Shown here: positions 12,808-19,208 of the stretch, one piece after another | Layout of the letters: every line of letters begins with the position of its first letter | Numbering within the stretch: the first letter of the stretch is position 1 | From: an uncultured Acidimicrobiales bacterium | GTDB taxonomy: Bacteria > Actinomycetota > Acidimicrobiia > Acidimicrobiales > SHLQ01 | Length of the DNA: 64,000 nt | NCBI GenBank assembly: GCA_964451305.1 | Contig: CAYVHV010000017.1 | Span: 2,977 to 66,976, forward strand | Reading direction: 5' to 3' | The notes under the pieces: model-generated | Databases searched by the model: none | The model's input: the letters and a program-made list of their open reading frames with translations, nothing else | Told to the model about the DNA's origin: nothing | Made by a program: the position numbers and the translations under genes

Positions 12808-13452
12808 CTAGGTCGAGCGGAGCTCGTGCGGGCTCATCACGACGACGGGGATCGAGATGTCGAACGCACGCGTATCGAGCGTCGTAATCTTGCGACCGGG
12901 CTGCGCTGCGTCACGTGGTTCCGAAAGGTTCTCGGCGAGCACGTGGCTCGTCGTCTGAAGGTTGCTGCTGACCAACGCAAGGCCCCAAATCCCCGTTGGT
13001 GCGGACTCGTCGATCTCGACGGGTCCCACGATCTCGATGATCACGCGACCAGCCCACAAGAAGCTCTGACGTCGTTCGCCGAGTGGGGTCATGATTTGGC
13101 TTGAACGGCGCTCGTTCATTCCGGCACTGGCAAAGGATGCGACGGTGGAATCAACGTCGCCCGTCTCCACCACGACATGGTCGATCGCAAAGACCGCATT
13201 GACGTGTTCGGTCACCGTCGCCGGCGCAAGTCCGCTCAGCGGGCTGGACGCAGCTGTGACGGTCGTAATGCCGGCGACGTCGTCGGTTACTCCAGCGAGA
13301 GACCAGCCGAGGACTCCTCGTGGACCGTCCGAACCCGCCAGCTCGACGATGACCTTTCCAAAGCGAAGCTCATCACCGTGGACCGTAAAGCCAGCGGACT
13401 TCCATGAATTAGGGTCATCTCCGATGACGATTCGTTCGAGCGCGTGGGCCAT
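12808..13452 (-). CDS. VOC (glyoxalase/bleomycin-resistance fold) family protein
   Basis: 214 aa with two modules. AIDHVVVETGDVDSTVASFASAGM is typical of a VOC metal-site strand. Confidence 0.55.
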   Translation of the reverse strand: MAHALERIVIGDDPNSWKSAGFTVHGDELRFGKVIVELAGSDGPRGVLGWSLAGVTDDVAGITTVTAASSPLSGLAPATVTEHVNAVFAIDHVVVETGDVDSTVASFASAGMNERRSSQIMTPLGERRQSFLWAGRVIIEIVGPVEIDESAPTGIWGLALVSSNLQTTSHVLAENLSEPRDAAQPGRKITTLDTRAFDISIPVVVMSPHELRST

Positions 13453-13479
13453 TTGTTGAGAGCATAGCCACCGGCGACT

Positions 13480-14943
13480 TCACGAGAGCTGCATCACACC
13501 GTCAGAAATTCGCGAGTACAACAGACTCTTCTGATCGGCAGCGAAGTTCTGATAGTTGCGCCACGGATCGCGGTCGAGCTGGCTCGGAAGCTCCGGCAAT
13601 TTTCGTTGGAGGTACCCGGCGGAGAAGTCGTCGATCCAGTCGAGCCGAGGCGCAGTACGATCCTCCGGGCGGAGCAGCGGAACACACGTCCTCGCGCCGA
13701 CTTCGCTCATCTCGTTAAGGAGACGACAGACATAACGGCTAACCATGTCGGCCCGCAGCGTCCACGACGCGTTCACGTATCCAAAGGTCGAGAACAGGTT
13801 CGGCACGCCGCTATATCCAACTCCCCGATAGGTCACCGTTTCAGAGAAATCGACGCGTTCACCATCGACGAACACGTCGATCTGTCCAACGAGGGTCAAC
13901 GCGAGCCCGGTCGCCGTTACCAGGACATCGGCAGGGACGAGTTCGCCGTTGTTGAGTTGCACTCCGGTTGCGGTGACCTTGTCGATCTCGGCGGTAACAA
14001 CCGACGCCGAACCCGACGAGATCGCGTCGAAGAAGTCGCCGTTGGGCACCAGGCAAAGGCGTTGATCCCACGGCTCGTACTCGGGGGTGAAGTGCGCTTC
14101 GGTAACTTCGGCTCCAAGCTCGTGGCGAACCCGTCGGAGCAGTTCGCGCTTGAGCAGTTCCGGACGCCGTCGGCTCACTCGGTAGATGAGTTGATCTCGA
14201 GCGATGTTGCGAGCTCGGGTCATCGCATACGCAACACGTTCGGGCAGCACGGATCGCAAACGAAGTGCGAAGGCATCGGTGTCGGGAGAGCTCACGACAT
14301 ATGTCGGCGACCGCTGCAGCATCGTGACGTGCTCTGCACTCTCAGCTAAAGCCGGCACCAACGTGACCGCAGTTGCACCAGAGCCGATGACGGTGACCGC
14401 AGCTCCGGAGACGTCGAGGTCTGCGGGCCAATGCTGCGGGTGGACGACGCGTCCTTCGAAGTCATCGATTCCGTCGAATTCAGGAGTATGTCCCGCCTCG
14501 TAGCTGTAGTAGCCAGCACAAACGAACAACACGTTGCATCGAAGACTCTCCTCGCCCGATGGTGTTTGCACCGACAACGTCCACATCTGATCAGCCGACG
14601 ACCAGTCCGCACTGGTCACTCGCTTTTCGTAGCGAATGTGTTTTCGAAGGTCGAACGCATCGACCGTCTCGTTGAGATACTCGAGGATCGCATCACCTCT
14701 CGCGATCGATTCGTCGTGGATCCACGGCGCGAACCGAAAGCCTAGGGTGTGCATATCGCTGTCGGAGCGCACACCCGGATACCGGAAGAGATCCCACGTG
14801 CCGCCGAGGTTTGCGCGCTGCTCGAGCATCGCGAACGTGCGGTCCGGGGCATTCTTCGAGAGATGATATGCGGCGCTGATGCCGGAGATTCCTGCACCGA
14901 TGATCGCAACGTCGACGTCAGGAGAGGCGGCTGTGGGTTCCAC
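13480..14943 (-). CDS. FAD-dependent Baeyer-Villiger / flavin-containing monooxygenase (EthA-like)
   Basis: VAIIGAGISGISAAY (GxGxxG), GGTWDLFRYPGVRSD, and the BVMO fingerprint FEGRVVHPQHWP (FxGxxxHxxxWP). Confidence 0.85.
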   Translation of the reverse strand: MEPTAASPDVDVAIIGAGISGISAAYHLSKNAPDRTFAMLEQRANLGGTWDLFRYPGVRSDSDMHTLGFRFAPWIHDESIARGDAILEYLNETVDAFDLRKHIRYEKRVTSADWSSADQMWTLSVQTPSGEESLRCNVLFVCAGYYSYEAGHTPEFDGIDDFEGRVVHPQHWPADLDVSGAAVTVIGSGATAVTLVPALAESAEHVTMLQRSPTYVVSSPDTDAFALRLRSVLPERVAYAMTRARNIARDQLIYRVSRRRPELLKRELLRRVRHELGAEVTEAHFTPEYEPWDQRLCLVPNGDFFDAISSGSASVVTAEIDKVTATGVQLNNGELVPADVLVTATGLALTLVGQIDVFVDGERVDFSETVTYRGVGYSGVPNLFSTFGYVNASWTLRADMVSRYVCRLLNEMSEVGARTCVPLLRPEDRTAPRLDWIDDFSAGYLQRKLPELPSQLDRDPWRNYQNFAADQKSLLYSRISDGVMQLS

Positions 14944-14970
14944 GCTCGAAGACTAGAGGGGTGGCGTGAC

Positions 14971-16365
14971 CTACGGCAGGTCGTGTGGAAGCGAACCTCG
15001 AGCGGCCCGAAGATAGGCATATGGAGTTTCGGCTCGGAAGTTTGAGACGCGAGACGTGTACACATCAGCGTACCGTTCGACCTGACGAGCAAAGAGACTC
15101 TTGTCGTTGCCCGCTCGCATCAGCGGCCCCCACACCGGGTTGCCAAGCTCCCCCGCAGCTCGGGCGAGCGGAGCGATCCGGTCGTCGAGTCTCGATGCCC
15201 GCGACGTGATCTTGTTGTACGCAGCCTGCACATCCTCGCCGCCGCCCGCAGCCCGTTGCAGACGAAGCTGCGCCTGCTTGCGATCGACGATGACCTTCTC
15301 GGCCATGAGTGACTCGAGCGTTGCTTGATCCGTTGCGAAATCGGCAGCATCGGCAATCTCGGATTCGAGACCCCGAGCAATCAACGCGGTCCTCCAGCGA
15401 AGCACGTCTTTCGAGACATGGACGTCACCGAAGAGATGGTCACCCACGTACAACGGATCATCGGCTTCGTTGCCGAACCATTCCTCTACAAGGCGGGCGT
15501 TGCCGCCGAAATAGACGTGCCCGGATTCGAGTGGCCCATCGTGAGGTAACAAGAGCGACTCGTCCTCGTCGACCACTCGATAGATCGGGTGCGACTCGAG
15601 AAAGAACCCTGGCTTGCTCGCCGAGACGATGACCAAATCGAACAGACTCCGCCAGGTGTCGGTTCCTTCGATGAAACGATCGAAACAGTACGGCATCATC
15701 TCTCGGGTGAAGGCCCAATCCGAGTTCGTGATAAGGACCAGCTTCTTGCCAGCGAGGCGTTGGTCTTGCAGCGTTGCGGCCATGTCGGGATCGAGATCGA
15801 CAAACCGCTCCTTGTCGCTCACGATCTGTGCTTTGAGCGCTCCCCCGTTGTGCGCAACAGCGAGCGCATCATCTACGGCGTCGTAGATGTCTCGGTAGCT
15901 TTTGGACCCGTCGAGCTCGCCACGATCGTGAAGTTCAATAAGTTGGGAGAACAGGCTTGCCCGGCTGAGCTCGAAGAGCGTGTTCATGAAGCGGAATCTC
16001 GGCGACGAGAGTTCGACGATGGTCGACGAGTACGCCGCCCGTTGTTGATCGAAGCTCAGAACCGATTTGCCGTGTTGAGCTCGAACAACCCGCCCGAATC
16101 GTGTTGCTTTGATGACGTTGCCGAGTTCGAGGTCGAAGACCAGCCCGACGGTAAATTCGGCCGGGTCAAAGGTGAAGTCCCCGACGGGAAGTCCACTGTT
16201 GGCAAGCGCGTGTTGAGCGTGGTTGAAAACTGCGCCTTCCCACTCCGCTGAGTGGTAGTGGATCAGCGTGTAGTCCATGTCGTATCCAACGACCGGCACG
16301 CTGCGGAGGTTCAGAGTCCTGTTTGCAAAGACGCCACGGACAGCGTCGGAGCGCGTTTGCCCCAC
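14971..16365 (-). CDS. HAD-IG family 5'-nucleotidase (cN-II-like)
   Basis: VFANRTLNLRSVPVVGYDMDYTLIHY (DxDxT motif I in the characteristic HAD-IG context). 464 aa. Confidence 0.85.
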   Translation of the reverse strand: MGQTRSDAVRGVFANRTLNLRSVPVVGYDMDYTLIHYHSAEWEGAVFNHAQHALANSGLPVGDFTFDPAEFTVGLVFDLELGNVIKATRFGRVVRAQHGKSVLSFDQQRAAYSSTIVELSSPRFRFMNTLFELSRASLFSQLIELHDRGELDGSKSYRDIYDAVDDALAVAHNGGALKAQIVSDKERFVDLDPDMAATLQDQRLAGKKLVLITNSDWAFTREMMPYCFDRFIEGTDTWRSLFDLVIVSASKPGFFLESHPIYRVVDEDESLLLPHDGPLESGHVYFGGNARLVEEWFGNEADDPLYVGDHLFGDVHVSKDVLRWRTALIARGLESEIADAADFATDQATLESLMAEKVIVDRKQAQLRLQRAAGGGEDVQAAYNKITSRASRLDDRIAPLARAAGELGNPVWGPLMRAGNDKSLFARQVERYADVYTSRVSNFRAETPYAYLRAARGSLPHDLP

Positions 16366-16370
16366 TCGGT

Positions 16371-16949
16371 TCAGCTCTCCCGGAACGTGATTTCGGTCGA
16401 ATCGAGCTTCAAACCAATCGCGCGAATCTCCTTATCGAGTGAAACGAAATCGAAATCGTCGCTTCCCGCGTAACGCTTGTCGAGTTCAAAGCGGAATCGG
16501 TTGCCCGGAGAGGTTCGGTTGACTTGTTTGAAGGGTGCCGACGGTTCACCGAACGAGTACTTCTGTGCCCACGCAACACCATCGATCATGGTGGCAAGCG
16601 ATGCAGCCGATGAGATCGCGTTCACCTCGGCGATGCTCGTCGAACACAACAGTTCTGCGTACTGCGGGTGTGGTTTGTGCTCGCCACAGCCTCCGAGGAG
16701 CGACATGATCTCTTGGGCCATCGGCTCTCGTCCGGGGAGTGCGTCGAGGGAGATACCGGGGCCATCGTCGGTGATGATGAACTCGTTGCCACTGGCAACG
16801 ACGTCAATCGTGGTGACCTCTCCCTGGTGGGCGCCGGTCAATGAAACACACAACGCGGCGCGTACGCATTGGTTGCGGATGTTGCCGTTCGTATCGAAGT
16901 GCACGCCAATTCGTGAACGTACTGTCTGGAGGTCTTTCGCCTGTACCAC
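16371..16949 (-). CDS. Stand-alone GyrB N-terminal ATPase (GHKL)-like domain protein with catalytic residues substituted
   Basis: 192 aa, colinear with E. coli GyrB residues about 15-215. Matching segments are LQTVRSRIG (cf. LDAVRKRPG), ITDDGPGIS (cf. VQDDGRGIP), DGVAWAQKYSFGEP (cf. EGKIHRQIYEHGVP) and PGNRFRFELD...FDFVSLDKEIRAIGLKLDSTEITFRE (cf. TGTMVRFWP...[26 protein letters not shown]). The E42/N46 box reads NQCVRAALCVS and the GGLHGVG ATP lid reads LLCSTSI. Confidence 0.6.
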   Translation of the reverse strand: MVQAKDLQTVRSRIGVHFDTNGNIRNQCVRAALCVSLTGAHQGEVTTIDVVASGNEFIITDDGPGISLDALPGREPMAQEIMSLLGGCGEHKPHPQYAELLCSTSIAEVNAISSAASLATMIDGVAWAQKYSFGEPSAPFKQVNRTSPGNRFRFELDKRYAGSDDFDFVSLDKEIRAIGLKLDSTEITFRES

Positions 16950-17195
16950 TAGCGCCTCTTATCCATTCTTCTTCACATCAAGAGTATTTCGTTACGGATT
17001 TCCCGTCCTCGGGGTTCTGTCGACAGTTTGGGTAGCGGAGATGAGGGTTTCACGAAAAACTTGGCGAATCGCTTCGATCGGCCGCTCGGCATGACGGAAC
17101 CCTTACTGTGTGTGCGTTTGGGTTCACGTTGGGTGAAACAAATTCTTCTACCCGACTAGCATGTAACGTTCCGTAACATTAATGTCATATTCGTT

Positions 17196-19208
17196 ATGTT
17201 TGGATCACACTCCGCGGTCACGCCCGCACGCCCAACCACGCACACCGCCCTCGGTGCCGCCTACCGCAGGTTGCCTCGACGGCCACTGCCACTTCTCGCC
17301 TTCACGCTCGCTCTCGCAGCCCTCCTCGCCGCGACGGCGCTGGTCACGCGGCCAGCGCCAGCAGCGGCGGCGCGCGCGAGCCAAGTACTCGTTCGCGCTC
17401 ACGGCATCAGCGGGGCCGAACAACTCGCCCTAACCATCAACGGAGAGGAAGTCTCGCGGTGGACGGTCTCTCGCACCCCCGATGACTACATCTTTACGAC
17501 GAACACACCCATCGAAGTCGAGACCGTCGAGGTCTCCTTCCTCAACGACTTGGGAACGACGAGAGACCTCGTCGTGGATTACGTCGATGTCGGCGGAATC
17601 GTCCTCGAGTCCGATGCCGCATCGACGGTTTCCACGGGCACCTTCCTTCGCGGCGAGGGTTGTCGAGAGCGCGCCTCGGTTTCCGAGACGCTCCACTGCC
17701 GCGGTTCCTTTATCTACGAGGTACCGCAGACCATCGCTGACGATGTTCCAGACACGACGACTACCGCGGCCGAGACTGCGGAGGCAGCGGAGACTGAGCA
17801 ACAAGAGCAAACTCCGACTCCAATCGTCATCACTCCCGATCCCACCTCGACCCCAGCGTCGACCCAGATCGACGCTCGGGTTTTTGGCAGCACGGGCAGT
17901 GAGCGCATAGAGCTTCGAATAAACGGCGAAACGGTGCTTGCCACCACCATCGATCGCGGTTGGCAGATGGTGCAACACACGATGGCAACGGCGACCACGA
18001 TCACCGACGCAGAACTGCATTTCGTCAACGATGACGGCCCCCGTGATGTCCGAGTCGACTATCTCGACGTCGACGGTGCGCACTTCGAGTCAGAAGATCC
18101 AAGCACTAGAGCCGCTGGTCTCTGGATATCGGGTCGTTGCACGGCAGGGGCATCGAACTCGGAATGGCTCCGATGCAACGGGTCGTTTCGCTACGACGTC
18201 AACAACACCGCCGCGGTCATTGCCACCCCGGACGTCGAGACACAGAACCAACCAACGCCGGCGACCGGAGCCGTCACCACCACGCCGGTCGACGATGCTC
18301 CAGCCGATACCGCCGCCCCAACAACGGCCGCCCCAACAGAAGCGCCTCCCGTGACCACCGCACCCGAGCCAGAACCCGCCCCCGAACCAACTCGGTCGGT
18401 CGGATCGCCGTCGAACGGCGCTCGGTACAGCATTGCCGAAGTCATCGACGGAACGATCGGCGCTGGCGATGGCTCGAACCCCAACGAAGAATCGCCAATG
18501 GGCCGCCACGACGCACCGCTCGCCTTGAACCAAGGCTGGAACTGGGCACAGGGCCCAACCCGCAACTCGGTATGGGGCCAGCTCGGTACCGGAAACTCGC
18601 GCTTTGCCGAATTCCGTTGCGCCGTCATCCCCGAACTCGGCCACACCCCGTCGGTACCGTTCCGAATCAACGTTCGCGAAGCCGCCTACTACCAGTACGT
18701 CAACGGCGACTGGCAGAAAGGATTCGATGTTGATCTCACCGGCGGCAACCACGGTGGATACCTGGGAACCGCTGGAGGTTCGAATAACAATCCGTTTACC
18801 TCAGGCTCGCACGGGCTGATCGAGTGGCGCCGAGAAGCCGACGGCAGTTTCTCCGCACCGTGGAACCCATCAGCGCTCATGATGCACTTCTGGGCTGCCC
18901 AGCGCCAGGCTCCAGCACCGGGCCAAACCGCGGAGTTCCTCACCAGCGAAGTTCGCCTCCAGCAACCAGATGGCCAAACCGTCGACCTTTCACAAGTCCG
19001 AGTCCTGTTCCAATGCGGCATCGACTACTACAGCACGACGGGCGGACAAGGAACCCAGGTCCCTGGACCGGGTATTGCGAAGTACCACCGCGCGACCGAA
19101 GAGTGGAACCCTGGTCTGTGGGTCACGCTGCCCCGGAACGCTCCCGCAAACTCCGTTGCAGACTTTTCGAGCTGGCTGACCAACAACACGCCACCGAACG
19201 TCGGTTAG
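17196..19208 (+). CDS. Secreted protein with two tandem CBM60/CBM36-like Ca-dependent carbohydrate-binding modules, Pro/Thr/Ala linkers and an unassigned 270-aa C-terminal domain
   Basis: Signal/TM region LPLLAFTLALAALLAATALV. Repeat 1 (nt 17382-17723) reads ...RDLVVDYVDVGG...STGTF..GEGC...SETLHCRGSF. Repeat 2 (nt 17865-18200) reads ...RDVRVDYLDVDG...AAGLW.SGRC...SEWLRCNGSF. Confidence 0.7.
   Translation: MFGSHSAVTPARPTTHTALGAAYRRLPRRPLPLLAFTLALAALLAATALVTRPAPAAAARASQVLVRAHGISGAEQLALTINGEEVSRWTVSRTPDDYIFTTNTPIEVETVEVSFLNDLGTTRDLVVDYVDVGGIVLESDAASTVSTGTFLRGEGCRERASVSETLHCRGSFIYEVPQTIADDVPDTTTTAAETAEAAETEQQEQTPTPIVITPDPTSTPASTQIDARVFGSTGSERIELRINGETVLATTIDRGWQMVQHTMATATTITDAELHFVNDDGPRDVRVDYLDVDGAHFESEDPSTRAAGLWISGRCTAGASNSEWLRCNGSFRYDVNNTAAVIATPDVETQNQPTPATGAVTTTPVDDAPADTAAPTTAAPTEAPPVTTAPEPEPAPEPTRSVGSPSNGARYSIAEVIDGTIGAGDGSNPNEESPMGRHDAPLALNQGWNWAQGPTRNSVWGQLGTGNSRFAEFRCAVIPELGHTPSVPFRINVREAAYYQYVNGDWQKGFDVDLTGGNHGGYLGTAGGSNNNPFTSGSHGLIEWRREADGSFSAPWNPSALMMHFWAAQRQAPAPGQTAEFLTSEVRLQQPDGQTVDLSQVRVLFQCGIDYYSTTGGQGTQVPGPGIAKYHRATEEWNPGLWVTLPRNAPANSVADFSSWLTNNTPPNVG

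Follow-up and report, generated by a model that had tools for sequence, protein, structure and literature searches.

A stand-alone homologue of the GyrB ATP-binding subdomain from an uncultured Acidimicrobiales bacterium belongs to a widespread pseudo-GHKL family with three conserved cysteines

What can the ATPase domain of a gyrase do once it stands alone and has lost the residues that hydrolyse ATP, and does its position next to a nucleotidase gene tell anything about its role? These questions arise from a 64,000-nucleotide (nt) stretch of contig CAYVHV010000017.1 of an uncultured Acidimicrobiales bacterium (hereafter the window), in which a 192-amino-acid (aa) protein resembling the ATP-binding part of GyrB is encoded directly upstream of a HAD-IG 5'-nucleotidase (Table 1). 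A first, sequence-only reading of the window described an eroded GHKL-type ATPase and suggested that the pair might form a nucleotide-depleting module with the nucleotidase as effector. Our verdict is different: the 192-aa protein represents an uncharacterised pseudo-GHKL family, of moderate interest, and is not part of a nucleotide-depletion module.

The 192-aa protein is a homologue of the 24-kDa ATP-binding subdomain of GyrB and stands alone. In the NCBIfam gyrB/parE models its residues 8-189 match GyrB residues 22-208 (E-values from 1.3e-8 to 7e-7), and phmmer against the PDB sequences returned only N-terminal fragments of GyrB or ParE (E from ~1e-6). The scores are nevertheless far under the curated cut-offs (33.7 bits vs 740 for NF004189; 29.5 vs 882 for TIGR01059), and Pfam gives only a sub-threshold HATPase_c match (E=0.067), with no match to DNA_gyraseB or Toprim. 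The AlphaFold2 model, built with 17 homologues (mean predicted local distance difference test score, pLDDT, 79.8; predicted template modelling score, pTM, 0.80), has the Bergerat alpha/beta sandwich fold. With Foldseek, the top 50 PDB matches of this model are without exception GyrB/ParE ATPase regions, mostly 24-kDa fragments, aligned over ~190 columns. Their template modelling (TM) scores range from 0.60 to 0.76, most of them from 0.67 to 0.76, and the best GyrB/ParE matches reach 0.70-0.76. The full-length likeness to the GyrB subdomain seen by eye is thus borne out by sequence and by predicted fold, and no other family came up among the top 50 matches of the fold search.

The protein also stops where the subdomain does. 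It ends at about residue 208 of Escherichia coli GyrB, ahead of the transducer domain as had been noticed, and begins at about residue 10-11, without the N-terminal strand-swapped arm that carries Tyr5 and Ile10. It has neither the cut-off score of a GyrB/ParE protein nor the succession of ATPase, transducer, Toprim and tail domains. What it shares with the GyrB/ParE 24-kDa subdomain is the fold over its full length, the sequence homology, the G1 box (DDGxG), the helix that follows the lid (xVNAxS) and the C-terminal beta-strands. It differs by what it lacks, namely the transducer, Toprim and tail domains, the glycine-rich lid, the Glu of catalysis, the Asn that binds Mg and the residues K103, Y109 and K110, and by the gain of three cysteines; the subfamily to which it belongs also lacks the dimerisation arm.

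The assignment of these residues depends on the register, which we anchored on an alignment of the wider family with E. coli GyrB, backed by a profile alignment. In this register GyrB E42, N46 and D49 correspond to A31, V35 and T38, and D45 corresponds to C34. A single-sequence HMMER alignment gave instead Q27, A31 and C34 for E42, N46 and D49. The loss of these three residues, which the sequence-only reading had proposed, holds in every register, but the letters R, C and L that it gave for them are one position off. The same applies to the ATP lid: GGLHGVG is lost, but its true counterpart is ELLCSTS, one position away from the LLCSTSI first proposed; Y109 is deleted and K103 replaced. Thus the 192-aa protein has neither the N box (catalytic Glu and Mg-binding Asn) nor the G2 box (GxxGxG lid). 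The G1 box is present (D61-D62-G63-P64-G65), with D61, G63 and G65 invariant in the subfamily, and the adenine-contact Asp is kept, as first thought, in the form of D61. Mg-ATP binding is predicted to be lost. The description as a stand-alone GyrB-ATPase-like domain without the residues for ATP hydrolysis is therefore sound, and the 192-aa protein can be regarded, on these residues, as a pseudo-enzyme derived from a GHKL domain, homologous to GyrB yet outside both the GyrB/ParE family and the active GHKL proteins.

To place this protein in a wider context, the subfamily profile was searched against 1.84 billion cluster representatives. It retrieved 872 proteins at E<=1e-3, of which 78 reach E<=1e-10; of the best 150 cluster representatives, ~90 stand alone, measure 175-235 aa and lack the GyrB lid motif. 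We aligned 91 short members with E. coli GyrB for residue statistics. Cys occupies the D45 position of GyrB in 95% of these members, and the same figure holds for the G101 and for the H116 position; all three cysteines are invariant in the subfamily. The 192-aa protein shows the same features, i.e. the 24-kDa subdomain alone, a length of ~175-235 aa and the triad C34/C88/C102, and belongs to this family, referred to below as the Cys-triad family. Position E42 is a Glu in 64% of the 91 members; it is A31 in the 192-aa protein and A, S or N in its nearest cluster. Position N46 holds assorted hydrophobic residues or His, K103 and K110 turn acidic, and Y109 is deleted, while D73, G75, G77, G119, G164 and mostly T165 are kept.

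A profile of 40 family sequences matches the GyrB 24-kDa fragments of the PDB over all its 205 positions (E ~1e-48). This match takes in the N-terminal arm, with a Tyr5- and Ile10-like consensus, and most canonical members keep the arm. The window subfamily is additionally without E42 and without the arm, and is the most diverged branch of the family, the window copy being a further-derived Acidimicrobiales paralogue. A canonical Cys-triad paralogue also occurs, at an unrelated locus (L014/L077, contig CALKGG010000001.1; motifs AEGHCGTC and ACRDHKEH), in a metagenome-assembled genome (MAG) that has a gene of the window type (L006); the window type is therefore a derived duplicate. The organism of the window may likewise hold a second family member outside the window.

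Table 1. Features of the locus, in window coordinates
Feature	Position	Strand	Evidence or remark
GyrB 24-kDa-like pseudo-GHKL protein, 192 aa, stand-alone; Acidimicrobiales branch of the Cys-triad family	16371..16949	-	homology, fold, dN/dS, family profile
Codon of Cys34 (first Cys of the triad), GyrB D45 position, beside the lost Mg-binding Asn46	16848..16850	-	register confirmed by profile
Codon of Asp61, GyrB D73 position (adenine contact), in the retained DDGPG G1 box	16767..16769	-	
Codon of Cys88 (second Cys of the triad), GyrB G101 position, where the ATP lid begins; the subfamily-invariant His91 and Lys92 come after it	16686..16688	-	
Codon of Cys102 (third Cys of the triad), GyrB H116 position, within the GGLHGVG phosphate loop	16644..16646	-	
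HAD-IG (cN-II-like) 5'-nucleotidase, 464 aa; lineage-specific neighbour	14971..16365	-	Pfam and NCBIfam membership
FMO-like flavin monooxygenase, 487 aa; third gene of the same-strand cluster	13480..14943	-	
orf214, 214-aa protein without family match; last gene of the cluster	12808..13452	-	
Operator/promoter-like element of ~40 nt abutting the CBM60 start codon; consensus ATGACAnTAATGTTACGAAACGTnAT	17151..17190	.	by eye, 11/11 upstream regions
Secreted protein, divergently encoded; contains two CBM60 modules and, at its C-terminus, a conserved domain	17196..19208	+	CBM60 E=1.8e-19

Genome loci of the family were collected with a degenerate DNA pattern for C-x2-G-x-A-V-x-N-A-L followed by a filter with the family hidden Markov model. 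Members were found in at least seven bacterial phyla: in Armatimonadetes, a deltaproteobacterium, two cyanobacteria, Archangium and Polyangiaceae (Myxococcota), the isolate Lysobacter hankyongensis JCM 18204, another Lysobacterales and Arenicella (Gammaproteobacteria), three Deinococcales and Acidimicrobiales. Scans of viral contigs with the subfamily alignment and with the canonical alignment gave no relatives. A tblastn search of a plasmid collection with a canonical member listed 25 records, all annotated gyrB/parE or featureless matches of similar identity; many of these records are chromosome-sized, and one Streptomyces match is labelled "ATP-binding protein".

Neither Pfam nor NCBIfam has a model dedicated to the family, and the PDB holds no entry from the Cys-triad family itself. 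Distant members match the NCBIfam gyrB models at 1e-17 to 1e-37, and Pfam gives at most sub-threshold HATPase_c matches. For six members the protein clusters were consulted, and none of the six has a source name; a fragmentary member (P0061) bears the Joint Genome Institute (JGI) label "DNA gyrase subunit B". Four longer members (P0036, P0057, P0059 and P0136) have extensions without Pfam match. In the open-access literature we found no description of a stand-alone, truncated or pseudo GyrB-like family of this kind.

Two known groups invite comparison. The truncated GyrB paralogues (PDB 3CWV, "DNA gyrase, B subunit, truncated") are likewise derived from GyrB and devoid of the DNA-cleavage half, but they measure ~350-370 aa, keep the transducer (Pfam DNA_gyraseB) and have no Cys triad. 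Proteins of the 3CWV type also turned up among our sequences: P0090, P0155, P0167 and P0184, of ~300-370 aa, combine ATPase and transducer without Toprim, with lids of the form HVHLR...GG(C)G. The anti-sigma-factor kinases SpoIIAB and RsbW (HATPase_c_2) are, like the Cys-triad proteins, small single-domain Bergerat-fold proteins; they act via partners, as the Cys-triad proteins would. They keep ATP binding and the N and G boxes, however, and are histidine-kinase-like, whereas the Cys-triad family is derived from GyrB; a single distant member gave one weak match to HATPase_c_2 (E=0.025).

We favour, with moderate confidence, the interpretation that the 192-aa protein is a cytoplasmic, non-catalytic descendant of the GyrB 24-kDa subdomain which, as a member of the Cys-triad family, works as a metal-, redox- or ligand-dependent binding module and not as an ATPase. 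Published GyrB structures imply that positions 45, 101 and 116 all border the triphosphate pocket: N46 keeps the Mg ion on the triphosphate, the ATP lid begins with G101-K103, and the phosphates are enclosed by the main chain of residues 115-119. Since the three cysteines are near-invariant at exactly these pocket-lining positions, they most simply belong to one site, and we infer that they are close in space and bind a metal.

The proposed mechanism would run as follows. Since the family has other residues in place of the Mg-binding Asn, of Tyr109 and the lysines that bind phosphate, and of the glycine-rich lid, the ATP chemistry would be gone, and the cysteines at the D45, G101 and H116 positions would converge in a single site at the former place of Mg-triphosphate. 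For this site we envisage either a Zn or Fe-S centre, perhaps with E42, a His or solvent as a further ligand, or a group of redox-active thiols. The site would fix or switch the former ATP lid in place of Mg-triphosphate, and the protein would act by binding to another protein or to a ligand lodged in what remains of the adenine pocket.

Some observations count against a Cys-based binding module. The AlphaFold2 model is weakest precisely in the lid, where residues 81-100 have a pLDDT of 57-64 and residues 86-89 fall below 50. There is no universal fourth ligand: E42 is present in 64% of the members, a Cys equivalent to C56 in 60%, and His91 in the subfamily only. The Arg and Lys of the conserved C-R-x-x-K motif after the second Cys could still bind an anionic ligand, which leaves room for nucleotide binding in an altered mode. 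Finally, we found no experiment on any family member in the open-access literature.

Is the gene a working one? A word-indexed protein search gave 27 homologues of the 192-aa protein with 54-100% identity. All 22 homologues on contigs longer than ~1.5 kb are intact open reading frames (ORFs) of 191-211 aa, none of them with a source name; four shorter ones, from contigs no longer than a few kb or with a lower query coverage, are probably partial gene calls. The subfamily alignment contains 58 invariant columns. In codon alignments of the window gene with eleven related Acidimicrobiales loci, the ratio of non-synonymous to synonymous substitution rates (dN/dS) is 0.04-0.19, a rough value since dS is saturated, but clear in its direction. 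The GyrB-like gene is thus under purifying selection. This selection, the ordered changes throughout the family and the three cysteines, each 95% conserved, contradict the word "eroded" in the sense of decay.

The 464-aa neighbour is indeed a HAD-IG 5'-nucleotidase, as proposed from its DMDYTL motif (residues 29-34), with scores above both curated cut-offs (Pfam 5_nucleotid PF05761, E=7e-126, 421 bits vs 28.5; TIGR02244, 296 bits vs 237). Compared with bacterial cN-II-like HAD-IG 5'-nucleotidases it is an ordinary full-length member with the DxDxT nucleophile motif; only its placement after the GyrB-like gene is unusual. This adjacency occurs in five of the twelve subfamily genomes, namely the window and four MAGs whose GyrB-like proteins are 76-84% identical to that of the window (L006-L009). 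Relatives with other genes downstream have 75% or 53-60% identity to the 192-aa protein. The gene directly downstream is orf214 in L013 (75%), the FMO gene in L001-L003 (57%) and a GGDEF-EAL gene in L004 and L028, the HAD-IG gene of L028 coming only after it; serA is next in L012, and other DNA follows in L010 and L011. Most subfamily loci have orf214 on the downstream side of the GyrB-like gene.

Seen from the nucleotidase, the picture is the same. Among 34 HAD-IG loci (from Acidimicrobiia, Jiangella, Hoyosella, Haloactinopolyspora, Polyangiaceae, Acidobacteria and others) the GyrB-like gene is immediately upstream in four, which are the same four MAGs. In 29 of the 34 no GyrB-like gene was found in the upstream flank (mostly 4 kb; two flanks of <450 nt are too short to judge); in L024 the slot upstream of HAD-IG is taken by an ORF for a 286-aa membrane protein. 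The HAD-IG gene is widespread as a stand-alone gene in Actinomycetota. None of 15 family loci from other lineages has a HAD-IG neighbour, and an all-against-all BLASTP of the neighbours at 20 family loci from many phyla revealed none shared beyond within-clade synteny. PADLOC-DB 2.0 gave no match at E<=1 for the 192-aa protein or the nucleotidase. The arrangement with the nucleotidase is recent and restricted to one clade, and defines no functional system. The functional coupling that had been suggested is not upheld by these counts (5/12, 4/34, 0/15), and the idea of a nucleotide-depleting module with the nucleotidase as effector fails with the clade-limited adjacency and the blank PADLOC result. 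The sequence-only reading had itself named a pairing not kept in related genomes as grounds for rejection, and the loci show just that. The pair is a poor candidate for a defence or nucleotide-depletion system.

Several other roles have to be weighed against a Cys-based binding module. That the gene is debris, a decaying piece of a duplicated gyrB, would agree with the missing catalytic residues and with a protein shorter than GyrB, but it deserves almost no credence: the 22 intact homologues, the low dN/dS, the 58 invariant columns and the membership in a multi-phylum family rule it out. If the pseudo-ATPase instead sensed a nucleotide or another signal and controlled the adjacent HAD-IG protein as effector, for nucleotide depletion or defence, one would understand the 5-nt gap between the genes with its possible coupling Shine-Dalgarno sequence, the same arrangement in four related MAGs and the kept adenine-pocket Asp. 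Yet the adjacency is missing in seven of the twelve subfamily genomes, one of them at 75% identity, in about 29 of the 34 HAD-IG loci and in all other family loci; PADLOC is without match, and HAD-IG is found widely on its own in Actinomycetota. We hold such a control improbable.

The main rival is a pairing with GyrB or ParE, in which the protein would modulate gyrase or topoisomerase IV by docking on the N-gate as a non-productive dimer partner and so tune or block strand passage; the Cys site might make this docking responsive to redox or metal. The direct descent of the family from the GyrB 24-kDa subdomain, the swap arm with its Tyr5- and Ile10-like residues in most canonical members, and a solo gene without conserved neighbour, which fits a housekeeping partner encoded elsewhere, all agree with it. 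But N-gate dimerisation normally depends on ATP binding, for which the residues have been lost; the window subfamily has no arm altogether, which makes the pairing less attractive for it; and tblastn of the window detects no genuine gyrB or parE, nor a second paralogue. We rate this role as possible but unlikely. A combined version, in which Cys-triad proteins form a hitherto unrecognised class of endogenous, metal- or redox-switched regulators that couple supercoiling to redox or metal state by docking on the gyrase or topoisomerase IV ATPase gate, the arm-less Acidimicrobiales subfamily being a derived form with another partner, seems to us doubtful.

A decoy function, finally, would make the protein a non-ATP-binding copy of the target that soaks up GyrB-directed antibiotics (aminocoumarin-like) or lid-directed toxins. 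GyrB R136 is essential for aminocoumarin binding, but its equivalent is Ile in the 192-aa protein and Arg in only 35% of the family; the Ile weakens the case for an aminocoumarin decoy, even though the adenine pocket on which ATP-competitive inhibitors rely survives in part (D73, G77, T165). The lid is a known point of attack for toxins: Fic toxins AMPylate GyrB Tyr109. Cpe1 cleaves GyrB between G101 and G102 (bioRxiv 10.1101/2024.12.30.630690). One family locus also lies near an Imm35 immunity gene (P0030, a canonical member; L016 4033-4914, contig JAHLSW010059021.1, ~340 nt from the Imm35-domain gene; not seen in other loci). The residues targeted by Cpe1 and Fic are however replaced or deleted, so that the protein would be no substrate mimic; the three near-invariant cysteines would be left unexplained, and no biosynthetic or toxin genes recur nearby in the 20 family loci. 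We consider a decoy very improbable.

The GyrB-like gene lies in a probable operon. The minus strand carries four closely spaced ORFs (Table 1), and the 192-aa gene heads this tightly spaced cluster, which contains the nucleotidase, in agreement with the sequence-only reading. The 5-nt gap between the two genes also holds: the stop TGA (16373..16371) is followed by ACCGA and by the GTG start of the nucleotidase at 16365. The 192-aa ORF itself starts with GTG, preceded at 7 nt by a Shine-Dalgarno-like AAGAGG, and cannot reach further upstream since a TAA in the same frame stands four codons ahead of this start. The GyrB-like gene is probably co-transcribed with the HAD-IG nucleotidase, the FMO-like oxidase and the 214-aa protein. 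The G+C content is ~57-58% over the GyrB-like and nucleotidase genes and ~60-62% around, so there is no sharp compositional break, and the nearest relatives of each gene of the neighbourhood are in MAGs labelled uncultured Acidimicrobiales, in line with a most likely origin of the window from a marine representative of this order.

Scans of positions 14700-17400 gave no sigma-70 promoter-like site, and terminator-like sites only at chance level. Rfam had no match at the locus with a permissive threshold or in the whole window at the gathering threshold, and a tRNA scan found none. The leaders of the GyrB-like genes keep a YCGAY motif (GTCGAC here; leader 17002-17024) in 11 of 11 cases, ~60-75 nt before the start codon, followed in most of them by hairpins of differing sequence with folding z-scores from -2.1 to +1.2. 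These scores are not significant overall; the hairpin may be fortuitous, and we do not claim a structured RNA.

The sole constant neighbour of the subfamily is the divergent gene with carbohydrate-binding modules of family 60 (CBM60), present in 11 of the 11 arrangements with a readable upstream side (among L001-L013). L024 keeps CBM60 without a GyrB-like gene, and the clade is narrow with a strong general synteny; the adjacency is therefore better taken as synteny than as a functional link. The C-terminal ~270 aa of the CBM60 protein (18393-19208) are 81-89% identical in most related loci that cover the domain, including L001-L003 and L011, where the GyrB-like gene is only 53-57% identical. 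This region has no Pfam, NCBIfam or PDB sequence match and is probably an uncharacterised catalytic or binding domain joined to two xylan-type CBM60 modules. The element abutting the CBM60 start codon has a TTACG-N3-CGTAA inverted repeat in several loci and a -10-like hexamer TAnTGT 10 nt ahead of the ATG; it resembles a promoter with its operator, for an mRNA with almost no leader.

The stretch between CBM60 and orf214/serA (window 12808-16949; L001-L013, L024, L028) is a hotspot of gene gain and loss, where the HAD-IG, FMO and GGDEF-EAL (~820-1020 aa) genes, the gene for the 286-aa membrane protein and the GyrB-like gene come and go. L024 (JBLIMK010000063.1) is binned as Verrucomicrobiales yet has the Acidimicrobiales gene order and is probably mis-binned; its HAD-IG protein and CBM60 C-terminal domain are 76-78% identical to those of the window.

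GyrB is a much-studied protein and a major antibiotic target, and here a widespread family keeps only its nucleotide-binding subdomain, with three fixed cysteines. A cultured strain with a member, Lysobacter hankyongensis JCM 18204, makes the idea of a Cys-based binding module testable. If the cysteines bind metal or sense redox, the family would be a new re-use of the Bergerat fold, and it might bring to light a type of topoisomerase regulator or ligand sensor not seen before.

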